In this document: positions 15,216 through 35,330 of the stretch, one piece after another | Numbering within the stretch: position 1 is the first letter of the stretch | How the letters are laid out: each line of letters begins with the position of its first letter | Assembly: GCA_965215005.1 (NCBI GenBank) | Contig: CBDCCZ010000009.1 | Span: 1-64,000, forward strand | Direction: 5' to 3' | From: Kofleriaceae bacterium | GTDB taxonomy: Bacteria > Myxococcota_A > Polyangia > Haliangiales > Haliangiaceae | Length of the DNA: 64,000 nucleotides | Made by a program: the position numbers and the translations under genes | The notes under the pieces: generated by a model | Seen by the model: the letters and a program-made list of their open reading frames with translations, nothing else | Told to the model about the DNA's origin: nothing | Databases searched by the model: none

Positions 15216-15222
15216 GGCGCCC

Positions 15223-16105: not shown

Positions 16106-17092
16106 TGGCGCAACCCGCACTCGCCCGCGGCGCGTGGCTGGCTCTATGCGCGGCGCTCATCGCAGCACCCCAGCGCGGCTGCAGCGCAAGACGCAACCCA
16201 GATGGCCGCGCCCATTGCCGATGAGCCGCAGGTCAAGGCCGCCGCGTCGGCCCTGGAGGTGCCGCTAGGCCAGCCCTTCATCGTGTTCGTCACCGCCTCT
16301 GCTGCGCCCGCCGTGGCCGAGCTCAATCTGCGCGGCTCCATCGATCTTGGCCCTGCCTTCGAGGTCGTGCGTGAGGTGAGCACGGTGCGCCGTGATCGCG
16401 ACGGCATGGTGGTGCACGAGTTCGAGCTCGAGGTCATGCCGTGGCAGGTCGGAGAGCTGCAGTTGCCACCGATCGAGGTCGTATGGGCGGCCAAAGGCGT
16501 TGCTCGCAGCGTCTATACTGAACCGCTGGGGATTCGCGTGGTGAGCTTCGTCGGTGAAGGCTCCGAGGAGCTGCGGCCGAGGGCTCCGCCGATTTCGTGG
16601 CTGCGTCGCGACCGCACCATGATGCTCGTCATCGGGGTCGGCGCGGCAGCCGTTGCCTTGGCGGCGGTGGTGCTGTGGTGGCGAGCGCGGCAGAGGCGGC
16701 GACCTTCGGCAGTGGTCGTGGCCGCGGATGCCGCGGTCGAGCACTCGGCGGAAACCGAGGCGTTGGCGCGGCTCGAGGCGCTGGCCACCAGCGGTGCGCT
16801 TCAGCGGCCAGATAGCAGGGCCGGCTACGCCGAGCTCTCGGAGATCATGCGCCGATATCTCGGCCGCCGATTCGGATTTGCGGTGACCGATCAAACGACC
16901 CCGGAGCTGAAAAATCAGCTCCTCGTATTAGCCCCTGAGCACGCCGAGCGCCTGGCGCGATGGCTCGAGCACTGCGACTTGGTAAAGTTTGCGGCTGCGC
17001 AACCAGCGGCGGAAGAGAGCCATGCGATGCTGACGCAGGCCCAAACGATCATCCAGCAGACGCGGCCGACCCCAGGAGACCGCGGTGGCTAA
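16105..17092 (+). CDS. Bat-operon exported/membrane protein (BatD-like Ig domain plus TM helix); apparent +1 frameshift at about 16170
   Basis: TGATG coupling at 16103-16107; signal peptide joins ORF 16202..17092 if one C of CCCC is removed; YLGRRF..DQTTPE..CDLVKFA C-terminus. Confidence 0.75.
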
Positions 17093-18158: not shown

Positions 18159-19294
18159 GCTTCTTTGCCCAGGCGCATACCTGGATCTTCCTCGCAGCGA
18201 CAGCGCTGGGGGTCACGATCGCCTTTGCGTTGGATTACACGCGCCGTCGCCGAGCGCTGGAGAGCATCGGCCAGCCGCGGCAGCTCGAGCGCATGATGGC
18301 CTCGCTATCCCGGCGCCGGCGGGTGCTCAAAGCCATTCTCTTCACCGTCGCGCTCACCCTGATCGTGGCCGCGCTCGGGCGACCGCGGGTCGAGGGGGAG
18401 GTCCGCTGGGCGAAGCGGGGCATCGATTTAGCGATAGTGATGGATTATTCGAAGTCGATGTTGGCTCGCGACGTCTATCCGAGCCGGCTCGAGCGCATGA
18501 CCCGCGAGGTCGACACGTTGCTCGACGAGCTCGACTCCGACCGTGTCGCCGTGGTGGCGTATGCGGGCGCAGCAGCGCACTTCCCGCTCACGCATGACCA
18601 TCTCGCGGCGCGTAGCGTCTTTCGCGGATTGTCGCCCGCGGACCTGCCGCCAGGCTCCAACTTAGGCGAAGCCATTCTCACTGCGCGCTGCGCGCTGCGC
18701 CCGGAGCTTCTCGAGGAAGCGGGATGTGAAAAGGTTGGCGGTCGCGGCGGTGGTGGCGCGCCGCTAACCGAGGAGGCTCCGGCGAAGACCCCGCTTCCGG
18801 GGCTCGAGGCGCGGCAGCAACGCGGTCGTGCCCTGGTGGTGTTCACCGACGGGGAGGATTCCGGAGGGAACGCTCGCGCCGAGATCGAGCGCGCGGTCAC
18901 GCAGGGGATTCACGTCTACTTGGTGGGAGTCGGTACTCGAAGTGGCGAGCTGATACCCGAGCGCGACGAGCTCGGCAACGACATCGGATGGAAGAAGACA
19001 GACGATGGCAAGTCGTTTGTCACCACGCGGCTCGATGAGGCGGGGCTGCGCGCGCTGGCCGAGGCCGCCGGTGGAGCAGGGCATTACCTTGCTCTGGACC
19101 CGAAAGCCGCGGGCGCAACGGAGCTGCTCACGGCGCTGCGGCGGGTCAAAAAGGGCGACCTCGATGAGCGCTTCATCTCTCAGCCGGTCGAGGTCTACTC
19201 GTGGCTCCTGTTCCCGGCGTTCTTGCTGCTCGTCCTGGAGGCGTGCATCAGCGAGCGCAAGCGGAGCGCGCGGTTGCGAGCGCCGCTGTCATGA
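18155..19294 (+). CDS. batB: VWA domain protein, BatB-like
   Basis: ALGRP, DYSKSM, PSRL, PLTHD, FTDGED; GTGA overlap with batA. Confidence 0.85.
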   Translation: MSFFAQAHTWIFLAATALGVTIAFALDYTRRRRALESIGQPRQLERMMASLSRRRRVLKAILFTVALTLIVAALGRPRVEGEVRWAKRGIDLAIVMDYSKSMLARDVYPSRLERMTREVDTLLDELDSDRVAVVAYAGAAAHFPLTHDHLAARSVFRGLSPADLPPGSNLGEAILTARCALRPELLEEAGCEKVGGRGGGGAPLTEEAPAKTPLPGLEARQQRGRALVVFTDGEDSGGNARAEIERAVTQGIHVYLVGVGTRSGELIPERDELGNDIGWKKTDDGKSFVTTRLDEAGLRALAEAAGGAGHYLALDPKAAGATELLTALRRVKKGDLDERFISQPVEVYSWLLFPAFLLLVLEACISERKRSARLRAPLS

Positions 19295-19366
19295 CGGCGG
19301 TCGTCCGACGCCGCGGGATTACCTACGCCGGAACCACGAGGCGGGCGCGGGAGCTATGCTGGCGCT

Positions 19367-20269
19367 GTGCACGGCAACGCAGGTGACAGGCGTCTGGCCG
19401 CCAGGATGAGTTTCCTCGTCGCGCTCTCGCTGCTCGGCGGCTGGAGCTGGTTGAAAACGCCAGACCCCCAGATCGAGCGTGGCAACGACCGTTACGAGGC
19501 CAAGGATTACCTCGGTGCGGTCGCCGCGTATGAGGCCGCGGGACAGGAAGGCGCGGCGCACATTGCGCAGTTCGACGCCGGCACCGCGCTGTTGGCATTG
19601 GCGGAGCAGCGCCAGGGGCCAGAGCGCGAGGCGCTGTTGAGCCGCGCGGAAGAAGCGCTGCGTCGGGCGGCGAGCGCGCCCTCGGCTTCGCTGCGCTCAC
19701 GGGCCTACTACAATCTCGGCAACGCGAGCTTTTTGCGCGAGCGTTGGAGCGACGCCGTCGCTGCCTACAAGAAAGCCCTGCGCGCCGACCCGCTCAACGA
19801 CGACGCGCGCTACAACCTCGAGCTCGCGCAGCGCAAGCACCGCGACGAGCAAGCGCAGCAGCAGGGGCAGCAGGGGCAAGCGCAGCAACAGGGGCAACAG
19901 GATCGCCAGGATTCCGGCGGTGACGGGCCCGCGCAACCTCCCGATGACGCCAGCGATGGCGACGCGGAGCCGTCAGGCCAGAAATCCGGCTCTCCGCCGC
20001 CTTCCGGTTCCTCCAATGAGCCGCGCTCTGCCGATCCGAGCCAGCCGCCGTCGCCGAGCGCTGCGGATCGTTCTTCGTCGGGGCAGCGGGGGCAAAATTC
20101 TGCGGGCGAGCCGCAAGAGCCACCCGCCGAGCCGGACGAAGCGCCACCGAGCGAGCTCGACCGCAAGCTCGACTACCTCGAGCGGATGAGCCGCGAGCTG
20201 CGCCGCGAGCGATTCCACGGGGGTGGCCAAGGCCGCTCTAGGCAAGGAAACGATGTCCAGGACTGGTAG
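19367..20269 (+). CDS. batC: TPR protein with a Gln/Pro-rich tail, BatC-like
   Basis: AYYNLGNA, YKKALRADPLNDDARYNLE, terminal DW; start uncertain. Confidence 0.8.
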   Translation: MHGNAGDRRLAARMSFLVALSLLGGWSWLKTPDPQIERGNDRYEAKDYLGAVAAYEAAGQEGAAHIAQFDAGTALLALAEQRQGPEREALLSRAEEALRRAASAPSASLRSRAYYNLGNASFLRERWSDAVAAYKKALRADPLNDDARYNLELAQRKHRDEQAQQQGQQGQAQQQGQQDRQDSGGDGPAQPPDDASDGDAEPSGQKSGSPPPSGSSNEPRSADPSQPPSPSAADRSSSGQRGQNSAGEPQEPPAEPDEAPPSELDRKLDYLERMSRELRRERFHGGGQGRSRQGNDVQDW

Positions 20270-22118
20270 CCAGTCGCGGCTAACGCTCGTGATGCTCGCG
20301 GTTAGCGCGTTGCTTGCGCCGCGGGCGCTGGCGCAGTCGCCCTCGAAGCTATCGCTGGAAGTGTCTCCCAAGGCGGGCACGATCGCGCAGACCTTCACTG
20401 CCACCGTCACGGTCGAGGTTCCGGGACTGGCCGGCCCCGATCGCTACTGGATGCCAGACTTCGGCGACTTCAAAGTCATCGACACGCAGTTCCAAACGAC
20501 CACCACGATGCAAACCGACGCCAGGCGCGGCAAGCAGCTCACCACCATCGAGACTCGTCGCTACATCCTCGAGGCTCAGCGGGCTGGGCGGCTGCGGGTC
20601 GGGCCGGCTCGAGTGCTCCTCGGCGGCAAAGAACACCAAACCCGTCCAACCTACGTTCGAGTGCTCGATGCTGGCACCGCGGCGGCAGCGCCGCTTCTCG
20701 ATAGCGCCACCGATCCGACCGCCACTGGCGGAGTGGGCGCGCCGGGCTTCACTCCGCCAGTGGCGCGGTTGGCCGCCAAGGACATGTTCCTGCACGCGGT
20801 CGCCGATCGCCAACAGGTCTACGAAGGCGAGCAGGTCACCGTCACCTGGCTGCTCTACACCCGCAGCGAGATTCTCAAGTTCGAGCCACGGCCACCGCAG
20901 CTCGACGACTTGTGGTCCGAGGTGTTGTACGAGCCGGATAGCTACTTTCGCTATTACAGCGATGAGGTCGGAGGCGTGCCGTACCAAGTCGCAATCGTCT
21001 CCAAGCGCGCGGTCTTTCCTACTCGCACTGGCAAGGTCGAAGTTGCTCCATTTGCCGCGGAGGTCGCGGGCCTGTACACGCCGCTTGGTGAGACCACCGC
21101 GCTGACCAGCGAGCCGATTACGCTCGACGTCAAGCCGCTGCCATCGGGCGCCCCACCGGGGTTCGATTCCAGCTACGTCGGCGTGTACTCGGTCGAGGCC
21201 GAGGCCGATCGCGAGCGGCTGGATGCGGGCGAGGCCCTCACGATCACCGTTACCGTGCGTGGCGAAGGAGCCATTCGCCGCACCAGCGCACCGTCGCTAC
21301 GAGCGCCAGGATTCGAGCTTCGAGCACCGCGCGATTTCGATGAACGGGTAGAAACCGCGGGCGATTTGGTCCGCGGCGAGCGCGTCTATCGCTACTGGAC
21401 CACGCCCACGCAAGCCGGCGAGCAGGTTATCCCGCCAGTCACTCTGGTTTACTTCAATCCGCGCACCGCAGCCTATGAACGAGCCGCATCGGAGCCAATC
21501 GAGCTGACGGTCAGTGGTGATCCAGCGGCGTCGGGGCGGAGCGATGCACGCCGTGAAAACTTGATTGGTCGCGACATCCGCGTGCTGCGTGCCGGCGCGA
21601 CCATCGGTACGCGAACCACGGCGCAGCTTTATCAGCGGCCGTGGTATTGGGCGCTGTTTTCGCTGCCGATCCTCGGGTTCGTAGGCTTGGTGATCGTCGA
21701 CCGCGTGCGCGAGGGGCTGCGCAAGGACACGCTGCGCTCACGGCTCCGCCGCGCCCGCGGGCGCGCGCGCCGGCGCTTCCGCGTCGCTGAGATGCATCTG
21801 CGCGGCAATCGCCCGAGCAACTACTTTGGTGAGCTGGCGCGGGTCATCTACGACTTTCTCGAGGAGCGAGTTGGTCAGCCGGTTGGCTCGATGACACGTG
21901 AGCAGCTCGGTGCGTTCCTCAGCTCCCGCGGATTCCGCTCCACCACCATCGAACGCATCCAACACGAGCTCGAGAGCTGCGACTACGCCCGGTTTGCGCC
22001 GACGGCTGCCGGACCCGATGAAATGCGCCAGGCCAAAGCCCGCGTGCAGGCGCTGCTGCGAGACATCGAGAACCAACGCCCGTCAAAGCGGCAAGAAGCG
22101 CAAGGAATCGGCCAGTGA
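20253..22118 (+). CDS. batD: BatD family protein
   Basis: Signal peptide, repeated beta-rich domains (VYEGEQV; DAGEALTITVTVRGEG), TM helix, CDYARFAP. Confidence 0.85.
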   Translation: MSRTGSQSRLTLVMLAVSALLAPRALAQSPSKLSLEVSPKAGTIAQTFTATVTVEVPGLAGPDRYWMPDFGDFKVIDTQFQTTTTMQTDARRGKQLTTIETRRYILEAQRAGRLRVGPARVLLGGKEHQTRPTYVRVLDAGTAAAAPLLDSATDPTATGGVGAPGFTPPVARLAAKDMFLHAVADRQQVYEGEQVTVTWLLYTRSEILKFEPRPPQLDDLWSEVLYEPDSYFRYYSDEVGGVPYQVAIVSKRAVFPTRTGKVEVAPFAAEVAGLYTPLGETTALTSEPITLDVKPLPSGAPPGFDSSYVGVYSVEAEADRERLDAGEALTITVTVRGEGAIRRTSAPSLRAPGFELRAPRDFDERVETAGDLVRGERVYRYWTTPTQAGEQVIPPVTLVYFNPRTAAYERAASEPIELTVSGDPAASGRSDARRENLIGRDIRVLRAGATIGTRTTAQLYQRPWYWALFSLPILGFVGLVIVDRVREGLRKDTLRSRLRRARGRARRRFRVAEMHLRGNRPSNYFGELARVIYDFLEERVGQPVGSMTREQLGAFLSSRGFRSTTIERIQHELESCDYARFAPTAAGPDEMRQAKARVQALLRDIENQRPSKRQEAQGIGQ

Positions 22119-22876
22119 AGGAGACGCTGGCGCTGATTGCCTTCGCTGTGGTGGTTACCGTGGCGATACCGGTGCGGGCGCAGTCGAGCTACGAGGACGC
22201 CCATGCCGCCTATGAAAGCGGCGATTACCGCCGCGCGGCCGAGCTCTACGAGGCACTCGTCGACGCCGGCGTGGTTCACGAGGATCTGTTCTACAATCTC
22301 GGCAACGCCTACTTTCGCGCTGGCGAGCTCGGACCCGCGATCTTCAACTATGAGCGTGCTCTTCGGGTCGAGCCGCACTTCGCCGATGCTCGCTACAACC
22401 TCGGCGTCGCGCGCGAAGCGGTCGCCGAAACCGTCGTCGATCGGCTCGAGCGAGCTGCCGATACATCGTGGCATGCGCGGCTGTTCTCGTACCTGCCGCT
22501 CGCCGATGTCATGCTTGCGCTGCTGCTACTGGAGCTCCTTTTGTTCGCGGCGCTGGTGGCTTCGCGCTTTCTCGAAGCCGGCTTTGTGCGTACTGCCGTG
22601 GTGGTTGCCGTAGTCTTCTTAGGAGTGGCCTTTGGCGTCGCGCTGGTGCTCACGGTAGGCGCGATTCGCGAGCGCGAGACCAAGACCACCGGCATCGTGT
22701 TGCCAGATGAGGTCGAGCTTCGCGAAGGTCCCGACGAGGGCTCGGTTGCGCGCAGCTCGATTCACGCTGGGCTCCGCGTCGAGATCGTCGACCGCGACGG
22801 AGCATGGTCTCGGGTGCGTCTTGGTAACGGTGTGGAAGGGTGGGTGCTGCAGCGCGCGATCGGAACGTTGCGCTAG
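22115..22876 (+). CDS. batE: TPR plus SH3 protein, BatE-like
   Basis: FYNLGNAYFR, two TM helices, C-terminal SH3b-like WSRVRLGNGVEGWV. Confidence 0.85.
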   Translation: MKETLALIAFAVVVTVAIPVRAQSSYEDAHAAYESGDYRRAAELYEALVDAGVVHEDLFYNLGNAYFRAGELGPAIFNYERALRVEPHFADARYNLGVAREAVAETVVDRLERAADTSWHARLFSYLPLADVMLALLLLELLLFAALVASRFLEAGFVRTAVVVAVVFLGVAFGVALVLTVGAIRERETKTTGIVLPDEVELREGPDEGSVARSSIHAGLRVEIVDRDGAWSRVRLGNGVEGWVLQRAIGTLR

Positions 22877-22945: not shown

Positions 22946-24361
22946 GTGGCGAGAGCGAGGCTGCTGGTGGTGGACGACGAGCCTTACTCCGCGGAGCACG
23001 TGGGGATATTGCTCGGCGCCGACGCTCACGAGATCATCAGCGCTTGCGAGGGCAGCCGCGCTATCGAGCTCGCAACCGTTGCCGCGCGTGAGGGCGCCGC
23101 GTTCGACGTGGTTCTACTGGACTACTACATGCCCGGGGTCGGTGGCGTGGACGTACTGCGCGAGCTCGGCAACCGCGGCATCGACTCTCGCATCATTTTG
23201 ATGAGTGGTCGTGAGCCCGGCGAGGTCGCGGTGGAAGCCATGCGCCTCGGGGCCTTTGACTTCATCTCCAAGCCATTGGGCAAGGCCGAGCTGCGGCTGC
23301 GTGTCGAGCGGGCGCTTCGCGATCGCCGGGCTGCAAAGCAGCTCAAAGCAAGCGGCGGCGGTGGCGGCAAGCGGCGACCGCGCAAGAGCGACGTCATCAT
23401 CGGCGGTGGCAGCTGGATCAAGGGTCTCTACGAGCGCATCTCCATGGTTGCTCCCACCGACGTCACAGTGGCGATCGCCGGTGAGAGTGGCACTGGTAAG
23501 GAGCTGGTTGCCCGCACGATCCACGCCCTTTCCGATCGTTTCGAGGCACCGCTGGTGGTCGTCAACTGCGCGGCGATTCCCGAGAATCTGCTCGAGGATG
23601 AGCTGTTTGGGCACGTCAAAGGCGCCTTTACCGATGCCACCCGCGATCGAGAAGGGCTGTTTTCTGCGGCCGATACTGGAACGCTGTTTCTCGACGAGAT
23701 TGGCGAGATGCCGCTGGCGCTGCAGGTCAAGCTGCTGCGGGTGCTGCAGTCGCAGGAGTTTCGCCGCATCGGCGATGATCGCGACAGCAAGGTCGATGTA
23801 CGGCTGATCACGGCGACCAATCGTGACCTCGAGAAAGCGGTGGCGGCGGGAACGTTTCGGCAAGACTTGTTCTATCGCATCAACGTGTTTCCGCTGGAGC
23901 TGCCGCCGCTGCGCGAGCGCCGTGAGGATGTCGCGCTGCTCGCGCACCACTTCTTGCTCAAGCACCGCGTCAAGGTCGGCAAAAAGGTCGAGGGCTTCAC
24001 GCCGGCGGCGCTGATGAAGCTAGCCAGCTACGACTTTCCCGGGAATGTGCGCGAGCTCGAGAACAAGGTGCACCATGCGCTGGTGATGGCGCAGGGGACC
24101 TACATTCAACCGCACGACATCCCGATTGGCTCGGCGTTGGCGGTGGCACCGGGTCGCATGGACTTGCAGCGAACGTTTCGCGAGCTCAAACGCGACGTCG
24201 TCGAATCGTTCGAGGCCGAGTACACCCGTGAGCTGTTGCGTTCGCATCAGGGCAATTTGGCCGCGGCGGCGCGGCAGGCGGGAATGGATCGCAAGAACCT
24301 GTGGGCCTTGGCGAAGAAGTACGAAATCGACGTGCAGAACTTTCGCGAGCAAAAGAAATAG
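22946..24361 (+). CDS. Sigma54-dependent response regulator (NtrC/AtoC family)
   Basis: REC (VVDDE, LLDYYMP, SKP), [29 protein letters not shown], Fis-type HTH. Confidence 0.95.
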
Positions 24362-24595
24362 CGAGAGTTGCCAAGCGTTGCGAGGTAGCCGTGGTCACTT
24401 TGCCTCGCGTGTAGATCGTAAGCTGATGGGACAAATACGCCGTAACTGCCTGATTCGACGCAGCCATATTATTTGGTAATTAGGCTTGTGGTTTTGATCC
24501 CGCAAATGGCGTTTCGCGAGTAGAGCTGCCCGAGCGGCCAAAATGCCGCAAACTAGGCCACTGCTTGGGTTTTCTAGCTTACGTGTTCTACCAGG

Positions 24596-27001
24596 GTGAT
24601 ATGGCGTAACTATTGCTCTGCTGGACCTCGACTTCTCCGGGAAAGGTTGTCGATGGTCCCACGCTGGTATGGTTGTCGGTTTGCTGCGATCGCTGCGCTC
24701 GTCTTGGTGAGCTCGTTTGCTTGCGAGGCGCCCCAGGAGGCGCTGCAGCAGACCCGCCGCGCGGTCGGTGGCGTGGAGCGCACGGCTGTGGTGGCCAGTG
24801 CAACGGGTGCCGCCATTGGCGACGAGGTAATCGTCCGCGTGCGGCCCGAGGTCGAGGTAGCCGCGCTAGCCGCGGCTTACGGCGGACGCATCGCGTGGCA
24901 CGCTACGCGAGTCGATCGCTACGCGCTCCGCTTCGATGATGCGGAGGCTGCTAGTCGCGCGGCGGATGCGTTGAGTAGCGATCCGCAGGTTCTCGACGTG
25001 GCGAAGAACCGCGTCACCACCGGTACGGGTATCGGCACATCGCCCATTGAGCTGCGCCGGCTGCAGTGGAACTTGGCGGCGCTGCGGCTATCGACCAACA
25101 CCAGCGGACGCAGCGCCGAAGGAGTGGTGGTCGCAGTTCTCGACACCGGGTTGGCGTATGAGGACTATGCCGACGAGCGCGGCAGCTACCAGCTCGCGCC
25201 GGATCTCGCTGAGGTCGAGCTCGTTGCCGGCTATGACTTCGTGAACGACGACGCCCATCCCAATGATGACAATGGCCATGGCACCCACGTCGCCGGGGTG
25301 ATTGCCGCCTCGAGCGGCATCGCTGCCATCGCCCCCGAGGTCGACATCATGCCGATCAAGGTGCTCGATGCTGACAATCGCGGCACCGAGCTGGCATTGA
25401 CCGAGGGCATCTTCTTCGCCGTCGATCACGGCGCCGACGTCATCAATCTGTCGCTGGCGTTTCCGCCCGAGTACTTTCCGTCGCGCTATTTGCAAGCGGC
25501 TATCGACTATGCGAGCGCCGCCGGCGTCATTATTGTTGCCGCGGCGGGCAACGACGGTGCCGATACCGTGAGCTATCCAGCTGCGTTTCGCGACGTCATC
25601 GCCGTTGGCGGCTCCCGGTTGGCGAGCGGCTATCCCAAAATGGCCACGCGCGGCTGGTGGCTCGCAGACTGGCTGCTCACTCCTGCGGCGTATTCCAATC
25701 GCGGCTATTTGCTCGACGTGCTCGCGCCGGGCGGTGATCTGGCCTCTGATGTCGATCGTGACGGCAACCCGGAGGCGGTGCTTGCGCAGACGCTCGGCGA
25801 GGGCGGCGGCTTCGATTATCGCTTCTATGCCGGCACCTCACAGGCGGCGGCGCAAATTTCTGGATTGGCAGCGCTGATGCGCGCCAAGAACCCGCAGCTG
25901 TCGCCGGCCCAGGTGCGCGCTGCCCTCGGAGATACCGCCCGCCAAACGGGATTTTTAGCGCTATCGCGGACGACGGGCCGCGGATTCGTGCGCGCGGATC
26001 GGGCGCTGCAGCTAGCTGCTGCCGGCCCTGCCGCTGCTACCGAGCTCGGTGCCAGTGTCTATTTATCGCTGCACGACTATGGCTTTGGGCCCATCGCTCG
26101 TGCCGAGGTCGAGGTGCTCGATGGCGCTGGCAACCCGGTGCCAATGGCACTTGTGTACGCAACGTTTTCTGGCGGCGCCTCGGCATCGAGCGCCTGGCTC
26201 ACGGGGGCAGACGGCAGGGCAACGTTTTATTCGCCGGTGCTGGCCGATGAGCTGCCGCTCGCTGCCTTTCAAGTGGATGCGGTGGAGGTGCGCAACGAAG
26301 GGGTGCGCCGTTTGGAGCGGCCACGTGGCGCGATGCGCATCGATAGCTGCTCTCTGCAGGCCTTAGCCGACTTCTCGACCTCAGGCGCGGGCATCGGCAC
26401 CAGCCCTTTGACGGTGCGCTATCAGCTCGGCGACGCGAAATCCAGCGAGCTGGCTGCGGTGAGCCTGGTCAACTTCTCGTGGGCGCTGGCCACGGTGCCC
26501 ATGGCAGTGGCCGCGCGTGCCGATTGGTTTGCGGGCCAGTTTCCTGGCTACGAAAGCTCGAGTGTGGTGAGCACTGGTAGCGGCATTGGGACCAGCCCAA
26601 TCACCATCCAGCTGCAACGCGCGGGGTTGCCAGGCGATGCGGTGCCTGCTGCCGAATGCATCGAGCTCATCCTAAGCACGTACAACGGAGGCGCCGGCAT
26701 CGGGACCAGCCCCTATCGCATGCAAGCGGCTTGTGAAGATTGCGCCGCGGTCGATGCGACCCTTGCCGAGCTTTGGAGCTTCCACGTATCCGGCGCCGGC
26801 ATCGGTACCTCGCCGGTGTGGCAAGCGAGCCGTGGCATATCGCTGGAGCTGTTCGAGCAGCTCGCTCGCATGATGTCGAGCTACGCGACCTTCGGCGGTC
26901 TCGCGGCGGGCACCAGTGTTGGCGATTATGGCCGTCTGCTGGAGGCCGCTGGCGCTCGAGCAGGCGTCGCAGCCGAGCATGCGGGGCTCGAGATTCCTTA
27001 A
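24596..27001 (+). CDS. Exported S8 subtilisin-like serine protease with five GxGIGTSP motifs
   Basis: Triad motifs VLDTG, NGHGTHVAG, GTSQAA and oxyanion AAAGND; hydrophobic segment ending SFAC; start may be about 24653. Confidence 0.9.
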   Translation: MIWRNYCSAGPRLLRERLSMVPRWYGCRFAAIAALVLVSSFACEAPQEALQQTRRAVGGVERTAVVASATGAAIGDEVIVRVRPEVEVAALAAAYGGRIAWHATRVDRYALRFDDAEAASRAADALSSDPQVLDVAKNRVTTGTGIGTSPIELRRLQWNLAALRLSTNTSGRSAEGVVVAVLDTGLAYEDYADERGSYQLAPDLAEVELVAGYDFVNDDAHPNDDNGHGTHVAGVIAASSGIAAIAPEVDIMPIKVLDADNRGTELALTEGIFFAVDHGADVINLSLAFPPEYFPSRYLQAAIDYASAAGVIIVAAAGNDGADTVSYPAAFRDVIAVGGSRLASGYPKMATRGWWLADWLLTPAAYSNRGYLLDVLAPGGDLASDVDRDGNPEAVLAQTLGEGGGFDYRFYAGTSQAAAQISGLAALMRAKNPQLSPAQVRAALGDTARQTGFLALSRTTGRGFVRADRALQLAAAGPAAATELGASVYLSLHDYGFGPIARAEVEVLDGAGNPVPMALVYATFSGGASASSAWLTGADGRATFYSPVLADELPLAAFQVDAVEVRNEGVRRLERPRGAMRIDSCSLQALADFSTSGAGIGTSPLTVRYQLGDAKSSELAAVSLVNFSWALATVPMAVAARADWFAGQFPGYESSSVVSTGSGIGTSPITIQLQRAGLPGDAVPAAECIELILSTYNGGAGIGTSPYRMQAACEDCAAVDATLAELWSFHVSGAGIGTSPVWQASRGISLELFEQLARMMSSYATFGGLAAGTSVGDYGRLLEAAGARAGVAAEHAGLEIP

Positions 27002-27049: not shown

Positions 27050-30000
27050 TTACGCCGCGGGAATGCGAAACGAGAAGGTAGCGCCTTTGCCTAGCTCGCT
27101 CGTGACCCAGATCGTGCCGCCGTGGCGAGTGACAATTTCGCGGCTGATATAGAGGCCGAGACCGATGCCACTCGAGCGCTGCTCGCCGGCGCCTTGGGCG
27201 TACTTCTCGAAGAGGCGTGCGCGAATGTCTTCGCTCATACCGGGGCCGTTGTCGCGGACGTCGACCCGCACGTAAAGGCGGGTGACGTCGCTGTCGACGA
27301 CGAGCGGCGACCAGGCGGCGTCGCCGCGAGCCAAGGGCAAGGGCGCGTCAGGGTCATCTTCGGAGAGTCGTTCGGTGCGGACGCTGATGGCGATAGCGCC
27401 GTCGGTGGGGGTGAACTTGACCGCGTTGTTGAGGATGTTCGACAGAACCTGAGCGATGCGATCGGGATTGCCGAGAGCGGTGGTGGCGAGACGGGAGGTG
27501 TCGGCGCGAATGTCGATGCGCTTGTGCTCACAAACCGGGCGGTACGTATCGACGACGTCGCGCAGGAGCTCGGCCATGTCGAACGGAGCCAGCGACCACT
27601 CGACGTTGCCGGTTTCGTGGCGAGACAGCTCGAGGACGTTGTCGACCAAGCGGCGCAGACGCTCGGCGTCGCGGCGAATGCGGGTGAATAGCTCTTCGGC
27701 TTCCATGCCGAGCGCACGCATCTCTTCATCACTTTGGCCGATATCGGCGTAGCCGAGAATGCCGGCTAGCGGGTTGCGAATCTCGTGGGCGAGGATCGCT
27801 ACGAGCTCGCTCTTGCGCTTCTCTTCGACCAAGAGGCGCGAGTTTTCGATTGCAAGCGCGACCTGCGCCGCAAACGCCTCGAGCAAGGTCAAGTCGACAT
27901 CATGCTCTTCGAAGGCGAGACGGCGGCTGTCGATGTAGATGATGCCGATGATGCGGCCGTGAGCGCGCAGCGGCGCGCACATGATCTGCCGAAGTCCCAA
28001 GGCCACCACGCTCTTCTGTTCGCGCAGCTCATCTTCGTCGGCGATGTCGGCGACGCTCACGGCTTCTCCCGAGCCGGCGACGCGACGCACGATGGTGCCC
28101 GAGAACTCGGCTTCGTCGCGGGCGAACCCCCTGGCGCCGGGACGCAGCCGGCGCAAGCGCTCGCGTGGTCGACCGGAATCGTCCAAGAGCAGCACGAAGC
28201 CGCGCTCGAAGCGCGTAAGCGCCAAGATTTTGTCGAGCGCAATTTCGAGCAGCCGCTCGACCTCGACGTTTGCTACCGCTTGCGTGAGCTCGAGCAAGAG
28301 GTCGAGACCGCGGCGGCGCAGGCCGCGTGCAGAACGGGCGCTTCGCACGCTGCTGATGGCGCCCAGCGACGCCCCCAATGCGCGCTGTCGTGCCCGCGCG
28401 GCGGTGAGATCCCAACGCGCTCCGAGCGCCGCGAACGCTTCGATGGCAACGGCGATAGTCTGGGTTGCCGCGTCGAGATCGCCACGAGCTGCGGCGATCT
28501 CGGCAGCTTCCATGTCGACTTTTGCGCCCTCGTAGCGGGCGCCCAGGCTGCTGATGAGCTCGCGCGCGCGATCGATGAACCACGCAGCCGAGTCGCGGTC
28601 GCCCTGCAGGCGCAGCGCGTGCGCCACAACGCGGTGCAGAATGCCTTCTTCGAGCCGCGTGCCGGCGTCTTTGGCTTCGCGAGCGGCGTCGATGGCGGCA
28701 TCGAGAGCAACCTCGATGCGCCCCGCGGCGATGTCGAGCTCGCACATCCGCCGCCGCGTCTCGATGGTGTCCTCGCGCGCGCCGATGTGCTCGAACCGCT
28801 GCATGGCGCTCTCGAAGCAGTCGCGAGCTTGGCTGAGCTCGCCCATGCGGAACAACGTCTCGCCGCGGTTGCCGAGGATCATCGCCGCCATATGCGCGTG
28901 ACCGGTCTTGTCGGCGACTCGTGCCGCGCGCTCGAAGGAGGCCAACGCATCGCCATGCTGCCCCAAGTCGCGATACAGCGACCCGAGGTTGTTTAGCGCA
29001 TTCACCAGCTCAGATTGTTCACCTTGGCGCTCGCACAGGCGGCGGAAGCGCTCCCAAGAGACACGTGCTCGCTCCCAGTCGCCTTGGAAGTAACAGGCGG
29101 CGCCGAGGTTGTTGAGGGAGCGTGCAGCTTGCTCGATGTGGCCCAGCCGCTCGACGACAGCGATGGCTTTCTCGAGCGCTTCGATGGCGCGCGCGTAGTC
29201 GCCGGCGTGAATCGCGGCGCGGCCAGTCTCGTGCAGCACGCCGGCGGTGAGTAGCTCATCGCCCACCGCTTCGGCGTGAGCGAGCGCGACGTCGAGCTGC
29301 TCGAGCGCGGCGCGGGTGTCGCCTTGATAGATATCGACCGCCGCACGCAATCGGCCGAGCTCGGCAGCGGTCTCGCGATCGCCGGTGCTCTGCGCGATTA
29401 CTAGCCCCGCGACCGTGTGCTCCATGGCGGCTTTGTAGTCGGCGCGATACATCAGCACCCAACCGATGCGCAAGTGACAACGAGCTTCCTCGGTCACCAG
29501 TCGATGGGCTCGCGCTTCGCCCAAGGCTGCCATCAGCGTGGCCAGTGCGGTGTCGCCCTCGCCGCGCCGTCGCTGTAGCTCGCCGAGACGAAGCGCGACG
29601 CGGACTCGCGCGGCCGGCAGCTGCGTCGTTGCCAGCGCACGCTCATAGCTCGTGCACGCATCGTCGGTATCGCCGATGAGGCTTTGCAGATCTCCGAGGC
29701 GCTCGTCGACGAGAGCGGCCTCGGCCGAATCGTGAATCTGCGGCCGAACGCGTTGGTACCACTGCAGGGACCCGTAGTGGTCGTAGCTCTGGGCGTGGCC
29801 CTTTGCCGCCGCCAGCCCATACGACACCGAGCGCTCGTCATCGCCAATCGCTTGGTAGTGTCGGGCCAGCTGCGCGGCAACTTCGACGCGCGCGGCGGGA
29901 CCGCGAGCTTCGAGCACGGCAGCGGCGCGGCGATGTAGCTCGAGCCTCTGCTCGACGTCGAGCTCGTCATACAGCACGCTCGCCAAGCCGTGCTGCGCGA

Positions 30001-31873
30001 AGCGAAACGCACCGGTCGCGGCATCGCCGGCCAAGACGTGGGCGCGCGCCGCTTCGGCGAGCGCTGCATCCGCGTCGTCATCCGCACCGCCAAGAAGCGC
30101 CGCCGCGGTGTCGCGATCGAAGCTATCGCCTAGCACCGCAGCGACCTCGAGCGCGCGCCGCGCCGCCGGCGGCAGGGCCTGAGCACGCGCATGTGCTGCC
30201 GCCAGCGCGTCGCTTGGAACCGGGATGGTGGGTTTGCGATGGCGCAAGATCCAGCGACCGCGCTCGCGCGCGACCTCGCCGCTGCCAACGAGCAGCTCGA
30301 GCGCTCGCGTCGCATGGGACGGATTGCCGCCAGAAGCGCGATAGAGGTCATCCGCTAGCGCATCGCCGATATCGTCGTCGAAGGCTTGCGACGCCAGCCG
30401 CACGACGCTCAAGCGATCGATGGGTGGCAGGTGCATGAGCTGTCCATGCTCGGAATCGTCGACGGCGGCATACAACCGGGCCGCGGAGTCGGCTGGATTA
30501 CCGTGCGCCTGATCGCGCGCCGCCATGACTAGCAGCACCGCGGAGTCGATGACCGAACGCGCCAAGTATGCGAGCAGCTCGGCGGTCGCTGAGTCGGCGA
30601 GGTGAGCGTCATCGACGGTGATGAGCACCGGATGCGTGGCTCCGACCTGCAGGACGACGCCGGTGACCGCTTCGGCGAGAGAAAACCGCGAGGCGCGATC
30701 GATGGGAGGCGCATCGCTGCGGCCGCCGAGCAGCGGCGCCAGCGCGGTCTGCCACTCTGGGTGTAGCTCGCGACTCGAGCCGCCAATACTGGCGAGTAGG
30801 CCACGCACCAGCATGGCGATGCCCGCGTAAGGTGTCTCGCGTCGCGTGGCCACCTCGGTGCTGAAAACCTGGCCGCCATCGAGCTGCACGTAGAGCTTGA
30901 GCTCTGCCATCAGCCGGCTCTTACCAATGCCTTCTTCGCCGATGAGCAGGGCGCACTGTCCCTGGCCGTTGCGAATCTCCGTCCATGCGCGCTGCAGCGT
31001 CGATAGATCGCGCTCACGGCCGACGAGCACCCCGCCGAGATCGATCAGTGGTCGGGTATCGGCAATCGCGAAGTGGGTGCCGGCAAGCTCGTTGATGCGC
31101 GCCAGCACCTCATCGGCAGTCTGCGGACGAGCGCCGGGCATCGGGTCGCAGAGTGCGACGACCAGCTCGGCCAGCGGTCGCGGTAGCGTCTTTACATGCG
31201 TGCAAGGGTCTTCGGGAGGTCCACGGCGTTGCGCCGCCAGTACCTCGCGCACGCTGCTGCCGCGGTACGGCAGCTCGCCGGTGAGCATTTGGTAGAGCAC
31301 GATGCCGAGCGCGTAGAGATCGGAGCGGGCATCGAGGCGACCCGCGTAGACCTCTGGCGCGGCATAGGGAAACGTGCCGCGTGCCGCTTGTGACGCGGGA
31401 TCATCGATGGCAGCGGCGAGGCCGAAGTCTGCAAGGCGCGCCGCGCGCTCGGGACTCTCTTGCAAGAGGCGCGCATCGACGAGCACGTTGGAGGGCTTGA
31501 TGTCCGCGTGCACCATCCCGCGCGCGTGAACCAGTGCGAGCGCGCGCAACATGCCGCCGATGAGGCGATAGAACAGCGGGGAGGGGACCTCGCTCACGGC
31601 TTCGAGCAGCGATGGTCCCTCGACATACTCCATGGTGAAGAAGTCGTGGCCCGAGTCGGTGAGGCCGTAATCGATGACCGAGACGATGTTGTCGTGTTTG
31701 AGTCGCGCTAACGCGAGAAACTCGCTGCGCAAGTTGGCGGCGCCGTGCGCTCGCGGCATCACCTTCATCGCGTAGATCGCACCGCTGCCGCGATCTCGGA
31801 CCCGGTTGACGACACCAAGACCACCTGAGCCGATCCGGTCCAGGACCTGGTAGCGCTCCGTGGACGAGGTCAT
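27050..31873 (-). CDS. Hybrid Ser/Thr kinase-AAA-TPR-GAF-histidine kinase
   Basis: GSGGLG, HADIKPSN, DFG, APE; GEEGIGKS; TPR array (SLNNLG); GAF (IMCAPL..IYIDS); AHEIRNPL, N box, DNGPG, GIGLGL. Confidence 0.93.
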   Translation of the reverse strand: MTSSTERYQVLDRIGSGGLGVVNRVRDRGSGAIYAMKVMPRAHGAANLRSEFLALARLKHDNIVSVIDYGLTDSGHDFFTMEYVEGPSLLEAVSEVPSPLFYRLIGGMLRALALVHARGMVHADIKPSNVLVDARLLQESPERAARLADFGLAAAIDDPASQAARGTFPYAAPEVYAGRLDARSDLYALGIVLYQMLTGELPYRGSSVREVLAAQRRGPPEDPCTHVKTLPRPLAELVVALCDPMPGARPQTADEVLARINELAGTHFAIADTRPLIDLGGVLVGRERDLSTLQRAWTEIRNGQGQCALLIGEEGIGKSRLMAELKLYVQLDGGQVFSTEVATRRETPYAGIAMLVRGLLASIGGSSRELHPEWQTALAPLLGGRSDAPPIDRASRFSLAEAVTGVVLQVGATHPVLITVDDAHLADSATAELLAYLARSVIDSAVLLVMAARDQAHGNPADSAARLYAAVDDSEHGQLMHLPPIDRLSVVRLASQAFDDDIGDALADDLYRASGGNPSHATRALELLVGSGEVARERGRWILRHRKPTIPVPSDALAAAHARAQALPPAARRALEVAAVLGDSFDRDTAAALLGGADDDADAALAEAARAHVLAGDAATGAFRFAQHGLASVLYDELDVEQRLELHRRAAAVLEARGPAARVEVAAQLARHYQAIGDDERSVSYGLAAAKGHAQSYDHYGSLQWYQRVRPQIHDSAEAALVDERLGDLQSLIGDTDDACTSYERALATTQLPAARVRVALRLGELQRRRGEGDTALATLMAALGEARAHRLVTEEARCHLRIGWVLMYRADYKAAMEHTVAGLVIAQSTGDRETAAELGRLRAAVDIYQGDTRAALEQLDVALAHAEAVGDELLTAGVLHETGRAAIHAGDYARAIEALEKAIAVVERLGHIEQAARSLNNLGAACYFQGDWERARVSWERFRRLCERQGEQSELVNALNNLGSLYRDLGQHGDALASFERAARVADKTGHAHMAAMILGNRGETLFRMGELSQARDCFESAMQRFEHIGAREDTIETRRRMCELDIAAGRIEVALDAAIDAAREAKDAGTRLEEGILHRVVAHALRLQGDRDSAAWFIDRARELISSLGARYEGAKVDMEAAEIAAARGDLDAATQTIAVAIEAFAALGARWDLTAARARQRALGASLGAISSVRSARSARGLRRRGLDLLLELTQAVANVEVERLLEIALDKILALTRFERGFVLLLDDSGRPRERLRRLRPGARGFARDEAEFSGTIVRRVAGSGEAVSVADIADEDELREQKSVVALGLRQIMCAPLRAHGRIIGIIYIDSRRLAFEEHDVDLTLLEAFAAQVALAIENSRLLVEEKRKSELVAILAHEIRNPLAGILGYADIGQSDEEMRALGMEAEELFTRIRRDAERLRRLVDNVLELSRHETGNVEWSLAPFDMAELLRDVVDTYRPVCEHKRIDIRADTSRLATTALGNPDRIAQVLSNILNNAVKFTPTDGAIAISVRTERLSEDDPDAPLPLARGDAAWSPLVVDSDVTRLYVRVDVRDNGPGMSEDIRARLFEKYAQGAGEQRSSGIGLGLYISREIVTRHGGTIWVTSELGKGATFSFRIPAA

Positions 31874-32019
31874 CGCTCGCCATCTTCGCTGCCCAGATCA
31901 CACTTCGCAAGGGCAGGTCAGCGACTGCCATCGCTGCCTGCGCGTTGAGCCGCGTTTGCAGCTGGAATGCTGGCTCCGGTGCCAAACACCGACGTGCGCT
32001 GAGAAAAATTGCGTCGGCG

Positions 32020-32050
32020 CGTGCGCGGCTCATCGGCAGTGCGGTCCCAA
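32020..32050 (+). promoter_or_regulatory. Candidate ECF promoter, copy 1 (upstream of tonB)
   Basis: CGTGCG-N16-CGGTCCCAA, 8 nt before ATG 32059. Confidence 0.6.
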
Positions 32051-32058
32051 CGGACCAG

Positions 32059-32829
32059 ATGCACAGGTGGCAATCCATAGGCGCAGCGCTGGTGGTGTCG
32101 CTGGCGGCGCACCTGGCGGTGGGTGGCCTACCTTCGTTGTGGCCGCCGGTGGAGCCGCGGCGGGATGCGCCGGAGCCGGTGCCGGTGGTGCTCGTGCCGG
32201 TGGCGATGAGCGGCGGGCAGGGCGCGGCGGCCGCGAGCGCGGTGGCAAACGCGGCAGCTAGCGATGAGCCTGCGGCGGCGCCTCGCCGAGCGTCGACGTC
32301 GGCACGGCGATCAAAAGCCCCGTCGGCGACGCCGCGACTCGAGAAGGTGCGGCAGCGCGCTCCGGTTGCGCTGGCGCCGAGCGATGCCGACGCGATGCGG
32401 CTTGGCTCGCTGGGTGGCGGAGTCTTGGGCGACGTTGGGGCACCGCCGGGAGGCATGTCTGGCGGTGGGGCCGGCGCCGGCGCGGGTGTAGGTCGTGGCT
32501 CCGGCGGCGCGGGGCGCGCAGGCGCAGGAAGCGGCGCTGGCTCAAGCGCGATCACGCGCTGGCCACGGGCGCTCAATGAACGGCGCATCGAGCTGCGGTA
32601 TCCGCCGGCGGCGCGCGCCCGCAAGCTCACCGGGCGCGTCGAGCTCGAGCTCGAGGTCGGTGCCGATGGCCGGGTGCATCACGCGTCCGTTCGTGCCGGC
32701 GCGGGTGAAGCCTTCGATAAAGCCGCGCTCGAATACGCACGCAAGCTGCGTTTCACCCCCGCGCTCGCAGGACAGCGCGCGGTAGCGGTTCGCATCGCGT
32801 GGACCGTCAACTTTCGAGGTGTTCGATGA
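32059..32829 (+). CDS. tonB: TonB family energy transducer
   Basis: SLAAH TM motif, Gly-rich spacer, YPPAAR...GRVEL...LRFTPA TonB_C. Confidence 0.85.
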   Translation: MHRWQSIGAALVVSLAAHLAVGGLPSLWPPVEPRRDAPEPVPVVLVPVAMSGGQGAAAASAVANAAASDEPAAAPRRASTSARRSKAPSATPRLEKVRQRAPVALAPSDADAMRLGSLGGGVLGDVGAPPGGMSGGGAGAGAGVGRGSGGAGRAGAGSGAGSSAITRWPRALNERRIELRYPPAARARKLTGRVELELEVGADGRVHHASVRAGAGEAFDKAALEYARKLRFTPALAGQRAVAVRIAWTVNFRGVR

Positions 32830-35297
32830 AGGCATTAACATGCGCGGCCGTAGCGCTCGCGGCGATGGCAGCGGTAGCCGAGGCGCAGCCAGTCGCTCCA
32901 GACGAAGCGCCAGTGGTCGAAGAAGCGCCGGCCGCAGACGAAGCGCCGGTCGTGGACGAGGTGCCGGTCGTTCGAAACGAGGCGCTGGTCACGCCAGCTC
33001 GGCTGCTAGCGCCGGTTGTACCGGTGTATCCATCGCTGGCCAAAGACAGCGGCCTAGAAGCCGACGTCGCCGTGCTCATCGACGTCTCGGCGACCGGAGC
33101 CGTCACAAGCGTCGTGGTCGTGGAGCCCGTCGGCAGCGGCTTCGATGAGGCCGCTCTTGCCGCGGCTCGAGCGATGCGGTTTACGCCGGCGCAGCAGGCC
33201 GGAATGCCCGTCGCCTCGCAGGTGCAACACACCTTCGCGTTCCGCAAAGAAACCGCGCCGCGCTCGCAAAAGCCGGAGCCGCAGCCCGTGCGCAGCGACG
33301 AAACGTATCGCACCGAGGTGTGGCTTGGCGGCGACGACTCCACCGTCGGCACCGTGGTGCTTTCGGAAGAAGAGCTGCGCGAGCTGCCTGGAACCCTCGG
33401 CGAGCCGATGCGCGCCGTCATGCTTTTGCCCGGCGTCACCACCTCGACGACCGGCGTGGCCTACCCGATTATTCGCGGTTCACTACCTGGCGAGTCGCAA
33501 TACGTGGTCGACGGCATCCAGGTGCCGTTGCTGTATCACTTCATGCTCGGCACGTCCGTGCTGCATCCCAACATCATCGGCGAGCTCGAATTTCATCCTG
33601 GGGGCGTTCCGGCGCAACACGGCAGGCTACTGGCAGGATTGGTGGAAGCGCATTTGGCCGACGCTCCCGTCGAGCGCAAAGACGAGGTTCGTCTCACCCT
33701 CGTCGACGTCGGTCTCTATCACGGGCAGCCCATCGGCGAGGACGCCGATCTCGTTGCCGCGGTGAAGGCAGGCACCCTTGGCGCGATCGCCTGGCTCATC
33801 GACCCCAGCATCATCGTGAGCTACGCCGACTACCAAGCGCGTTATCGGCACGATATCGGCGCGGGTCGGCTCTCGCTCACCGCCTTGGGCGCGTGGGACC
33901 TCATCAAGTTCGTGCCGAAAGACGACGAAGATACGGCGGAAGACGATCTGTGGCTTGGCTTTCACCGGCTCGATCTCCGCTATGACAGGCCCGTTGGCGC
34001 TAGCAACGTCGCCGTCGGGGTAGAGCTTGGTTACGACGCCATCGGCAGCAACTCCAATGGACGTGATGCACCCGTGGAGGGAGACCCAGATTTTCCGCCG
34101 GAGCGGCCCGATCCGAAGCTCAGCGACTGGCGAGCACGACCGCACGCACAGCTCACCTCGCGCCTCACCGATACGCTCGGAATGCGCGTGGGCGCCGACG
34201 TTTTGCTGCAGCGACCGCGGGTGCGAGGCGCTGATATCACGTCGGCCGACGAGCTCGAACCCTCGCCCTATATTGTCAAGCCGAGCTCGATTGTCACCAG
34301 CGGGGCATGGCTTGGGCTCGACTGGATCTTGGGCGCCCTGACGGTGCGGCCCGGCGTGCGCGTCGATCACTATCGAACCAACACCGACGAGGGCCGCTTC
34401 ACCGACACCACCATCGATCCGCGACTAGCCCTCGACTATCGCGTTCATCGCGACGCTACCCTCAAAGCCGCCGTAGGCGTGTATCACTCGCCGCCGCGAT
34501 TCACGCTGGTCGACAGCAGAATCACCATTGGGCCAGTACCAGCGACCGATGGCCGTGGCGCTCGCTACGGCAGCAATCGCTCGCTTCAGACCCAGCTCGG
34601 TATCGAAGCGTGGCTGGCGGACATGCAGGCCACCGCCACCGCCTTCTACCAACAGAGTGACTATGCCATTGACCTCGGCGCTCTCGATTTACCGGTCGTT
34701 CCCGACGACCGCGAGTTCTGCGACACCGGGACCTTCGTCGAGGACAGCGAGCGGGCGCGGCCCGTCGGCGTGAAGGGCCGCAGCTATGGCCTCGAGCTCA
34801 TGGGCCGGCAACCGCTCGGCGAAGAGGTGTTTGGCTGGGTTAGCTACACGTTGTCGCGCAACGAGCGCGAGGTCGCCGGAGTCGGCCGCTTTCCGACCAA
34901 CTTCGACCAGACGCACGTGCTCAATGGTGCACTGTCGTGGACGCCGAACCGCCGCTGGACCCTCGGCGTGGCAGCGCAGGTGCATAGTGGTGTGGCGGCG
35001 ACCGGTGTTATCAGCAAGCGCTGCGAGCTGTCGCTGCCGGACCAGCCTGGCTACACCTACGTCGACACGAAACCAGGCCGTGTGAACGGCGAGCGCCTGC
35101 CGTGGTTTTGGCGCGGCGACGTACGCGCCGAGCGCCACTTCGAGCTCGATGGTTGGAAGCTCCACGTCTTCTTCGAGATGATCAACGCCACGCTGCAGAC
35201 CGACTACCAAAGCTTGGAGGTCAATAACGCTGGCGAGACCAAGCCCTCGGGCTTCCCCATCGTCGTACCGATGATCGGTGCGCGCGGTGAGTTCTAA
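32826..35297 (+). CDS. TonB-dependent receptor with an N-terminal TonB_C-like domain
   Basis: Signal peptide; PVYP...GFDEAALAAARAMRFTPA; plug LPGV..IIRG; DPRL, GRSYGLEL, DQTH; terminal GARGEF; ATGA overlap. Confidence 0.88.
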   Translation: MKALTCAAVALAAMAAVAEAQPVAPDEAPVVEEAPAADEAPVVDEVPVVRNEALVTPARLLAPVVPVYPSLAKDSGLEADVAVLIDVSATGAVTSVVVVEPVGSGFDEAALAAARAMRFTPAQQAGMPVASQVQHTFAFRKETAPRSQKPEPQPVRSDETYRTEVWLGGDDSTVGTVVLSEEELRELPGTLGEPMRAVMLLPGVTTSTTGVAYPIIRGSLPGESQYVVDGIQVPLLYHFMLGTSVLHPNIIGELEFHPGGVPAQHGRLLAGLVEAHLADAPVERKDEVRLTLVDVGLYHGQPIGEDADLVAAVKAGTLGAIAWLIDPSIIVSYADYQARYRHDIGAGRLSLTALGAWDLIKFVPKDDEDTAEDDLWLGFHRLDLRYDRPVGASNVAVGVELGYDAIGSNSNGRDAPVEGDPDFPPERPDPKLSDWRARPHAQLTSRLTDTLGMRVGADVLLQRPRVRGADITSADELEPSPYIVKPSSIVTSGAWLGLDWILGALTVRPGVRVDHYRTNTDEGRFTDTTIDPRLALDYRVHRDATLKAAVGVYHSPPRFTLVDSRITIGPVPATDGRGARYGSNRSLQTQLGIEAWLADMQATATAFYQQSDYAIDLGALDLPVVPDDREFCDTGTFVEDSERARPVGVKGRSYGLELMGRQPLGEEVFGWVSYTLSRNEREVAGVGRFPTNFDQTHVLNGALSWTPNRRWTLGVAAQVHSGVAATGVISKRCELSLPDQPGYTYVDTKPGRVNGERLPWFWRGDVRAERHFELDGWKLHVFFEMINATLQTDYQSLEVNNAGETKPSGFPIVVPMIGARGEF

Positions 35298-35330
35298 GGC
35301 GACTTAAGGCGAACCAACTAGGAGTAATCG

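Follow-up and report, generated by a model that had tools for sequence, protein, structure and literature searches.

An exported myxobacterial protease with a repeated, lineage-specific peptide beside a sensor kinase may excise its own cell-to-cell identity signal

An S8 subtilase with five copies of one short peptide

We analysed a 64,000-nucleotide stretch of DNA from a Kofleriaceae bacterium of the Myxococcota (hereafter the window; positions 1 to 64,000 of contig CBDCCZ010000009.1, assembly GCA_965215005.1), in which the gene of a predicted exported S8 subtilase, P0001, encodes five copies of the peptide G-x-GIGTSP and lies between the genes of a sigma-54 response regulator and a large cytoplasmic hybrid kinase. 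Among uncultured myxobacteria, the repeated hexamer differs from lineage to lineage while agreeing among its copies within a protein, and the protease may excise from itself a signal of cell identity. The subtilase gene is laid out as follows.

24653..27001, + strand: S8 subtilase gene P0001, 782 aa
24653..24724, + strand: signal peptide with a lipobox-like Cys24 at its end, as seen in the sequence
24785..25027, + strand: fervidolysin-type prodomain with the predicted autoprocessing bond T125-G126 at its end (Pfam PF22148 below cut-off, fold matches, 3whi register)
25028..26032, + strand: catalytic domain with D164 (25142), H209 (25277), N300 (25550) and S396 (25838)
26036..26344, + strand: Ig-like beta domain (weak Big_1 match; structure model)
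26345..26998, + strand: folded alpha/beta tail domain of ~220 aa holding motif copies 2-5 (no library match)
25022..25045, + strand: motif copy 1, GTGIGTSP at aa124, at the prodomain junction
26384..26407, + strand: motif copy 2, GAGIGTSP at aa578, a site of tandem expansion in relatives
26576..26599, + strand: motif copy 3, GSGIGTSP at aa642, better ordered in the model and often degenerate in relatives
26690..26713, + strand: motif copy 4, GAGIGTSP at aa680, a site of tandem expansion in relatives
26792..26815, + strand: motif copy 5, GAGIGTSP at aa714

P0001 belongs to Peptidase_S8 (aa156-444; 160 bits, cut-off 21.8), and the D/H/N/S triad with the oxyanion Asn is intact in 42/42 aligned proteins; at subtilisin positions 222 and 225 the window enzyme has Gln and Ala, respectively. 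The prodomain, matched by Pfam at aa45-114 below the cut-off, finds its best fold matches in fervidolysin and the pro-subtilisins, and a simple pattern detected a Cys of this lipobox-like kind in 46/87 relatives. P0001 is thus predicted to be an exported S8 subtilase with an autoprocessing register. It lies below the NCBIfam cut-offs for TIGR03895 (PatA/PatG; 60.2 against 421.05), mycosin (175/279), QhpE (77/165) and PrtP (dentilisin; 65/300), and the IteS model gave no match to it.

The original prediction, made from the DNA letters alone, had taken the tail to be cut into discrete peptides corresponding to the spacers of 56, 30 and 26 aa between the motifs. These spacers are indeed unlike each other; yet each is conserved across relatives, and AlphaFold2 models them as one folded domain (pTM 0.80 for the whole protein, 0.70 for the tail alone). 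Cys566 and Cys669 flank copies 2 and 3 and co-occur in 61/61 cases among the 87 proteins, and therefore the spacers are parts of this one domain and not separate products. Copies 1, 2, 4 and 5 have a predicted local distance difference test (pLDDT) score of <50, so that four of the five copies appear as low-confidence loops in the model and not as the buried core of a repeat domain. The tail is without a fold match: the wide VIA search reached a best Z of 3.7, with the cyanobactin DUF fold absent among the matches listed, Foldseek against the PDB and viral sets gave no match at E<=0.001, Pfam gave none for the window tail, and the ESM Atlas gave no usable match for the two tails queried. Such absence of matches is no proof of a new fold.

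All five motif copies, which the original prediction had listed, lie in one frame of the open reading frame 24653-27001. When the protein was shuffled 20,000 times, five copies of any hexamer were never reached, the maximum being four, in four shuffles. Codon identity among the copies is 25/60 = 0.42, the value predicted from the codon use of the gene (0.42), and Ser of the motif is coded by TCG as well as AGC; therefore the peptide is conserved and the DNA is not. When the assembly was scanned in all six frames, GIGTSP was located elsewhere at two single sites only, in short frames. The five copies are hence confirmed as real and selected at the protein level, as had been suggested. The C-terminal AAGTSV, listed before as a degenerate copy, has to be discarded, relatives having A-P-V there.

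The repeated peptide is a lineage barcode

Matches to the tail query came from 14 of 147 genomes in the order, and a tail profile matched 4 of 401 genomes sampled from the phylum, all four inside the order; the relatives are assigned to Kofleriaceae and Haliangiales. Tail-only matches of 80-360 aa look like contig fragments, although some may be stand-alone tails; P0066, a long protein with repeats, was set aside as a chance match. After five duplicates, the divergent P0061 and new matches of <700 aa had been dropped, 87 full-length proteins remained for comparison, with trees made by FastTree and by a quick method.

A modal tail hexamer is present in 87/87 proteins, in 25 variants, e.g., GIATSP, GVGPSP, GISTSP, GFGSSP and GIGTTP, and the copy at the prodomain junction is present in 77/87 and absent in 10/87, so that homologs keep the motif, as the original prediction required. 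The junction hexamer equals the commonest tail hexamer in 73/77 proteins (mean 11.6 and maximum 24 in 20,000 shuffles), each of the four mismatches differing at one position. Parsimony places ~34 hexamer changes on the tree, and the match between junction and tail is therefore not explained by kinship. With positions 1-4 used as the seed, copy identity within a protein is 0.57/0.98 at position -2 (Gly), 0.26/0.41 at -1 and 0.93-1.0 at +5 and +6, and falls to background by +8/+9; the repeated unit has a sharp start. Copy number varies among relatives, the extreme being GIGTSPS in tandem seven times, and tandem arrays of 7-mers and 9-mers occur that are too tight to accommodate a fold. The motif is a lineage barcode.

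The copies are homogenised at the DNA level in G106 (252/270 codons identical, 0.62 expected) and in G143 (206/330, 0.34 expected), whereas codon identity lies at expectation in G000 (0.42/0.42, observed/expected), G002 (0.52/0.58), G005 (0.53/0.57), G140 (0.58/0.55) and G145b (0.54/0.55). Since some genes are homogenised in DNA and others are not, a variant is spread by conversion or slippage and then retained by selection. The homogenised genes could also be accounted for if the repeats were modification sites, such as for Ser/Thr O-glycosylation, or near-neutral loop inserts evened out by intragenic gene conversion; the motif is rich in Ser, Thr and Pro, and new copies arise at look-alike sites. 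We nevertheless regard this explanation as improbable, because protein identity persists in the five genes with codons at expectation, two tandem paralogs in one genome (G145) retain different barcodes, GIGTSP and GLGTSP, and one variant hexamer has neither Ser nor Thr.

Several individual genes illustrate the course of this variation. In G107 (L032:111-2828), an extra GIATSP copy stands in the Ig domain at aa 505 and further copies replace look-alike sites near the C-terminus, so that the motif spreads within the gene. Tandem S8 paralogs lie beside a single kinase in L036, L171 and L175, with differing barcodes in L036 (GIGTSP and GLGTSP), identical ones in L171 and nearly identical ones in L175. 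In G001 (L028:7915-10668), a frameshift follows copy 3 in the S8 tail, and the frame of the adjacent kinase is also interrupted, through either assembly error or decay.

Barcodes differ under near-identical enzymes

A tree-aware comparison of the enzyme columns with the barcode (87 proteins, 652 columns) gave a best z of 2.5, with no column standing out, and none of the tail and Ig columns co-varied with the barcode. Tyr392 (subtilisin position 217) was the top non-motif column in a simple count made over 33 of 42 proteins and was rejected as a barcode-linked residue after falling to rank 23 on the tree. The catalytic domain of P0056 is 98% identical to that of P0094 and to that of P0107, but their barcodes are GIVTTP, GLGSSP and GLSTSP, respectively; the tails are ~41% identical, diverging directly after the Ig domain, at its conserved end RPxG..IDSCSL, and none of the three proteins has a junction copy. 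A metagenome scan for these three loci yielded four family loci among 80, none of them the three sought.

Different barcodes on 98% identical enzymes, together with the lack of a co-varying column, make it unlikely that the motif is merely the specificity site of its own enzyme. Which barcode a protein bears is not determined by its enzyme, and the barcode behaves like a polymorphic ligand. Consequently, the proposal that the motif is the recognition site of the protease falls short as the whole story, considering also the ~34 hexamer changes and the lack of a junction copy in all 42 genes of the sister subtilases described below.

The position of copy 1 agrees better with the earlier proposal, in which it lay at the place of autoprocessing: it stands between the prodomain and catalytic-domain matches, and in an alignment with unprocessed pro-subtilisin E (3whi) N119-T125 fall on P7-P1 in subtilisin numbering. 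The autoprocessing bond would thus be T125-G126, right before GIGTSP. With a cut before G-hydrophobic, tandem arrays would therefore yield 7- or 9-mers. In an alternative register, the hydrophobic residue would occupy P4, with cleavage before Pro; this could be a second cut. A hydrophobic P4 suits the subsites of subtilisin, but the GWALGD variant does not fit this register. Complex prediction for the S8 domain with residues 566-600 scored 0.01 and was not used as evidence.

The active site offers a further argument for a self-directed role of the motif. Position 225 is Ala instead of Pro in 87/87 relatives and position 222 is Gln or Pro instead of Met, whereas outgroup S8 proteases have Pro and Met. 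Passages of PMC7921005 describe subtilisin positions 217, 222 and 225 as lining S1' and 189 as lining S2', and engineered subtilisins in which changes at 225 favour ligation over hydrolysis. The motif might accordingly be the enzyme's own substrate or pseudo-substrate, timing self-activation, or acting as leaving group and nucleophile in a transpeptidation that cross-links or cyclises. Copy 1 at the predicted processing bond, the residues at 222 and 225 and the P4 register speak for it; we consider it unlikely all the same, given that enzyme co-variation was not found, that near-identical enzymes bear different barcodes, that the junction copy is absent from 10/87 relatives and from 42/42 sister genes, that GWALGD breaks the P4 register and that the linkage to the kinase would be left unexplained.

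A conserved sigma-54 promoter-like site and an adjacent regulator

Upstream and downstream of P0001 lie the following elements.

22946..24361, + strand: sigma-54 response regulator (REC, sigma-54 activator and HTH_8 by Pfam), candidate activator of the S8 gene
24391..24406, no strand assigned: palindromic enhancer-like site RYGGY-N6-RCCNY, with a second match at 24534-24549
24602..24617, + strand: sigma-54 -24/-12 promoter-like site
27050..31873, - strand: cytoplasmic hybrid kinase (Ser/Thr kinase, STAND-type AAA_16, TPR, GAF, HisKA and HATPase by Pfam), candidate receptor

The regulator precedes the S8 gene in 10/13 genome loci, the other three beginning inside S8, and in 4/4 family metagenome loci. 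With patterns derived from the very 12 loci counted, the palindrome occurs upstream one to three times in 12/12 loci (0.03-0.16 per locus expected from shuffles) and the sigma-54 site in 12/12 on the sense strand and in none on the other strand. At four independent loci, the palindrome was found in 4/4 and the sigma-54 site in 2/4 by the same strict pattern and 4/4 by a looser one. The S8 gene hence has a conserved sigma-54 promoter-like site, whose position favours ATG 24653 over GTG 24596 as the start codon.

A STAND hybrid kinase accompanies the subtilase

The kinase adjoining S8 in the window (1607 aa; TPR_12, 79 bits; TPR region at ~aa 700-1190) has no clear transmembrane segment and is the sole protein of its assembly with all four parts; the other three S8 proteases of this genome sit on contigs without a kinase-AAA cluster. 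With an AAA_16 NTPase, a fused Ser/Thr kinase and TPRs, it is a STAND protein, presumably of the SWACOS clade. The original prediction had placed the feature at 25022..26815, where it is real, but it is larger, and the promoter, the regulator and the link to the STAND kinase had been missed. The kinase lies downstream of S8 in 10/13 genome loci, the remainder being cut by contig ends, and in 3/4 metagenome loci, and it is present in all 14 S8-bearing genomes of the order.

Regulator and kinase belong, however, to the conserved core synteny of the order (Bat operon, coaD), and adjacency within the order alone is therefore weak evidence. Sister S8 proteases, ~45% identical and sharing a GTSQA-type active site, provide an independent view. 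A sister profile matched 63/401 genomes at E<=1e-90, generic S8 proteases included, and 40 of the top loci were analysed in two batches of 20. Most sister tails hold repeated units with other barcodes (GMASSS, GLGGTP, GWALGD, GFSSST and GLITDP). Constant across both clades are a G-x followed by G-hydrophobic and the end of copy identity after 6-8 residues, positions 1-4 again serving as the seed. A STAND protein, in one case a cyclase, neighbours the sister S8 in 21/40 loci (12/20 and 9/20). These neighbours are ~25-33% identical, stand in varied gene orders and orientations and are without Bat genes, which removes the objection from core synteny. Moreover, the best whole-genome match of the window kinase was the S8 neighbour in 5/5 sister genomes tested.

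The cyclase locus (L167:9986-14137) encodes an adenylate/guanylate cyclase-AAA-TPR protein adjoining an S8 protease with tandem GFISSSLGT repeats, and some sister loci have HD-type regulators; the sensor is therefore kept while the output changes. Clustering of 20 sister loci by similarity revealed no conserved neighbour other than kinase and regulator. Sister S8 genes with degenerate repeats in L160, L161, L172 and L215 are not accompanied by a STAND kinase in the stretch read, possibly a joint loss, and in L217 the kinase is present but clear repeats are not.

Farther out in the window, a MoxR ATPase, a DUF58-like gene and vWA/TPR genes at 14187-22876, upstream of the regulator, form a cluster that we take to resemble a Bat operon; it is kept throughout the order, including genomes without S8. 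Judged by eye, TonB-like, TonB-dependent receptor-like, ExbB-like and ExbD-like reading frames lie beside the kinase at 31945-36379, a possible uptake route of which the TonB-like gene was not found at the same place in the relatives compared, and an ECF sigma factor-like frame followed by an anti-sigma-like one at 37229-38505. In the S8-less G123 (L056-L057), regulator and kinase are ~20 kb apart, with other genes between them, some of which look restriction-modification-like by eye. In one sub-clade (L036:2560-4617 and L060:13609-14139), a frame that by eye resembles a B12-binding radical SAM protein follows S8 and could modify the peptide there.

A proposed self-processing precursor sensed by the kinase

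From the gene linkage, the promoter, the concerted lineage-specific change of the repeats and the divergence of tails under constant enzymes, we tentatively put forward, as a possibility somewhat short of an even chance, that P0001 is a self-processing multi-copy precursor of a kin-specific peptide, which is sensed by the STAND/TPR kinase and feeds back on its own promoter. The exported S8 protein of this three-gene module would be both protease and precursor. It would cleave itself at the bond between G-x and G-hydrophobic, first at the prodomain junction and next in the loops of the tail, whereby peptides starting with GIGTSP would become exposed or be released. A peptide entering the cell would bind the TPR sensor of the adjacent kinase, whose His-kinase part would phosphorylate the adjacent regulator and so activate the sigma-54 promoter of the S8 gene, resulting in a self-reinforcing, kin-specific signal of density or identity. 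Cut site, release, import, binding and phosphotransfer are inferred steps of this scheme, whereas the repeats themselves and the four kinds of observation that open this section are shown.

A number of observations weigh against it. Protease and kinase occupy different compartments, the former being exported and the latter cytoplasmic, and the loci read showed no conserved importer; single copies in loops would need two cuts for release. Among the 32 kinase-positive genomes of the order, 19 are without the family S8 by the tail query; the five of these genomes that were examined further contained a generic S8 protease only and no motif cluster, a search there for orphan peptide clusters gave scattered matches at control level, and the kinases of two of the five share the TPR residues of the GIGTSP type. 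Co-variation of receptor and barcode over 11 kinases gave permutation fractions of 0.03-0.08, equal outside the TPR core. Among the sister loci, 19/40 have no STAND neighbour in the stretch read; several of these lie on short contigs, and some have full flanks and clear repeats. Accordingly, S8 and kinase as a functional module are much better supported than the peptide as direct ligand.

Alternatively, the motif might be a tethered identity tag, displayed cut or uncut on a folded surface tail and read by an extracytoplasmic partner in kin recognition or adhesion, with kinase and regulator only controlling expression of the gene. Export signals are present, the kinase is also found without S8, and the tail is folded and probably held by disulfide, so that nicked pieces would stay attached; the tails diverge wholesale under near-identical enzymes, as they do in polymorphic surface systems. 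This alternative is rather unlikely in our judgement, in that the tail and Ig columns show no co-variation with the barcode, that the 20 clustered sister loci offer no partner gene beyond kinase and regulator and that retention of a STAND-TPR sensor under changing outputs is more easily explained by a link through the sensor. For the precursor model, a wider claim may be made more hesitantly still, namely that Myxococcota throughout the phylum practise kin-specific signalling in which a subtilase frees numerous copies of a hypervariable barcode from its own exchangeable tail and an NLR-like STAND hybrid kinase is the receptor.

Discussion

Myxobacteria rely on cell-cell signals and kin discrimination, and little is known about the inputs to which their large Ser/Thr-His hybrid STAND kinases respond. 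The present module supplies a candidate ligand, enzyme, receptor, regulator and promoter, by which the question becomes testable. If the wider claim is true, a bacterial STAND protein would have a self-encoded peptide as its ligand, and a Gram-negative social lineage would possess peptide 'pherotypes'. Even without the receptor idea, the switching of all copies at once across lineages under a constant enzyme is unusual, and for peptide-ligase engineering a natural family of Ala-225/Gln-222 subtilases is of interest. The module is apparently undescribed: no description of it was found in the literature searched, which included few subscription journals and no supplements, and 'GIGTSP' led there to papers on neural receptors.

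The closest functional analogy is with the RRNPP(A) systems such as Rap-Phr and NprR-NprX, in which, as far as the sources cited here describe them, an exported precursor with repeated short peptides is encoded adjacent to a cytoplasmic TPR protein. Phr autoinducers of 5-6 aa are duplicated and diverging within the exported precursor, with many specificity variants (passages of PMC5199041), and extracellular proteases including subtilisin-type ones mature Phr peptides for TPR receptors (passages of PMC11343458). The module would work like Bacillus Rap-Phr without being a member of that family, since the architectures of precursor and receptor differ. The repeats lie here inside a 782-aa protease, whereas the RRNPP propeptide is small (tens of residues); the candidate receptor is a 1607-aa kinase-AAA-TPR-GAF-HisKA-HATPase protein, whereas RRNPP receptors consist of an HTH or 3-helix bundle and TPRs; and RRNPP belongs to Bacillota, the host here being a Gram-negative myxococcote.

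As an enzyme, P0001 resembles pro-subtilisin E (3whi), Tk-subtilisin (2e1p) and fervidolysin (1r6v) in its prodomain and S8 fold, intact triad and junction register, but the junction sequence is repeated here in a tail that has no fold match, and the residues are Gln/Ala at 222/225 and Ala/Ser with Phe at 127/128. The cyanobactin proteases PatA and PatG likewise are S8 proteases acting on short recognition sequences repeated in one precursor; there, according to the relevant part of PMC4663559, the sites are constant and the cores vary, whereas here the repeated unit varies by lineage, and no conserved tailoring enzymes were seen near the S8 gene. A defence signal peptide embedded in an extracellular subtilase is described for soybean GmSubPep (in part of PMC6770897), which is a plant protein with a single copy and implies no homology. 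On the receptor side, Avs/SWACOS proteins combine a STAND NTPase, a TPR sensor and a fused output domain in the same way, and their Avs sensors bind folded phage proteins, as set out in sections of bioRxiv 10.64898/2026.01.04.697583, whereas the candidate ligand here is a self-encoded peptide.

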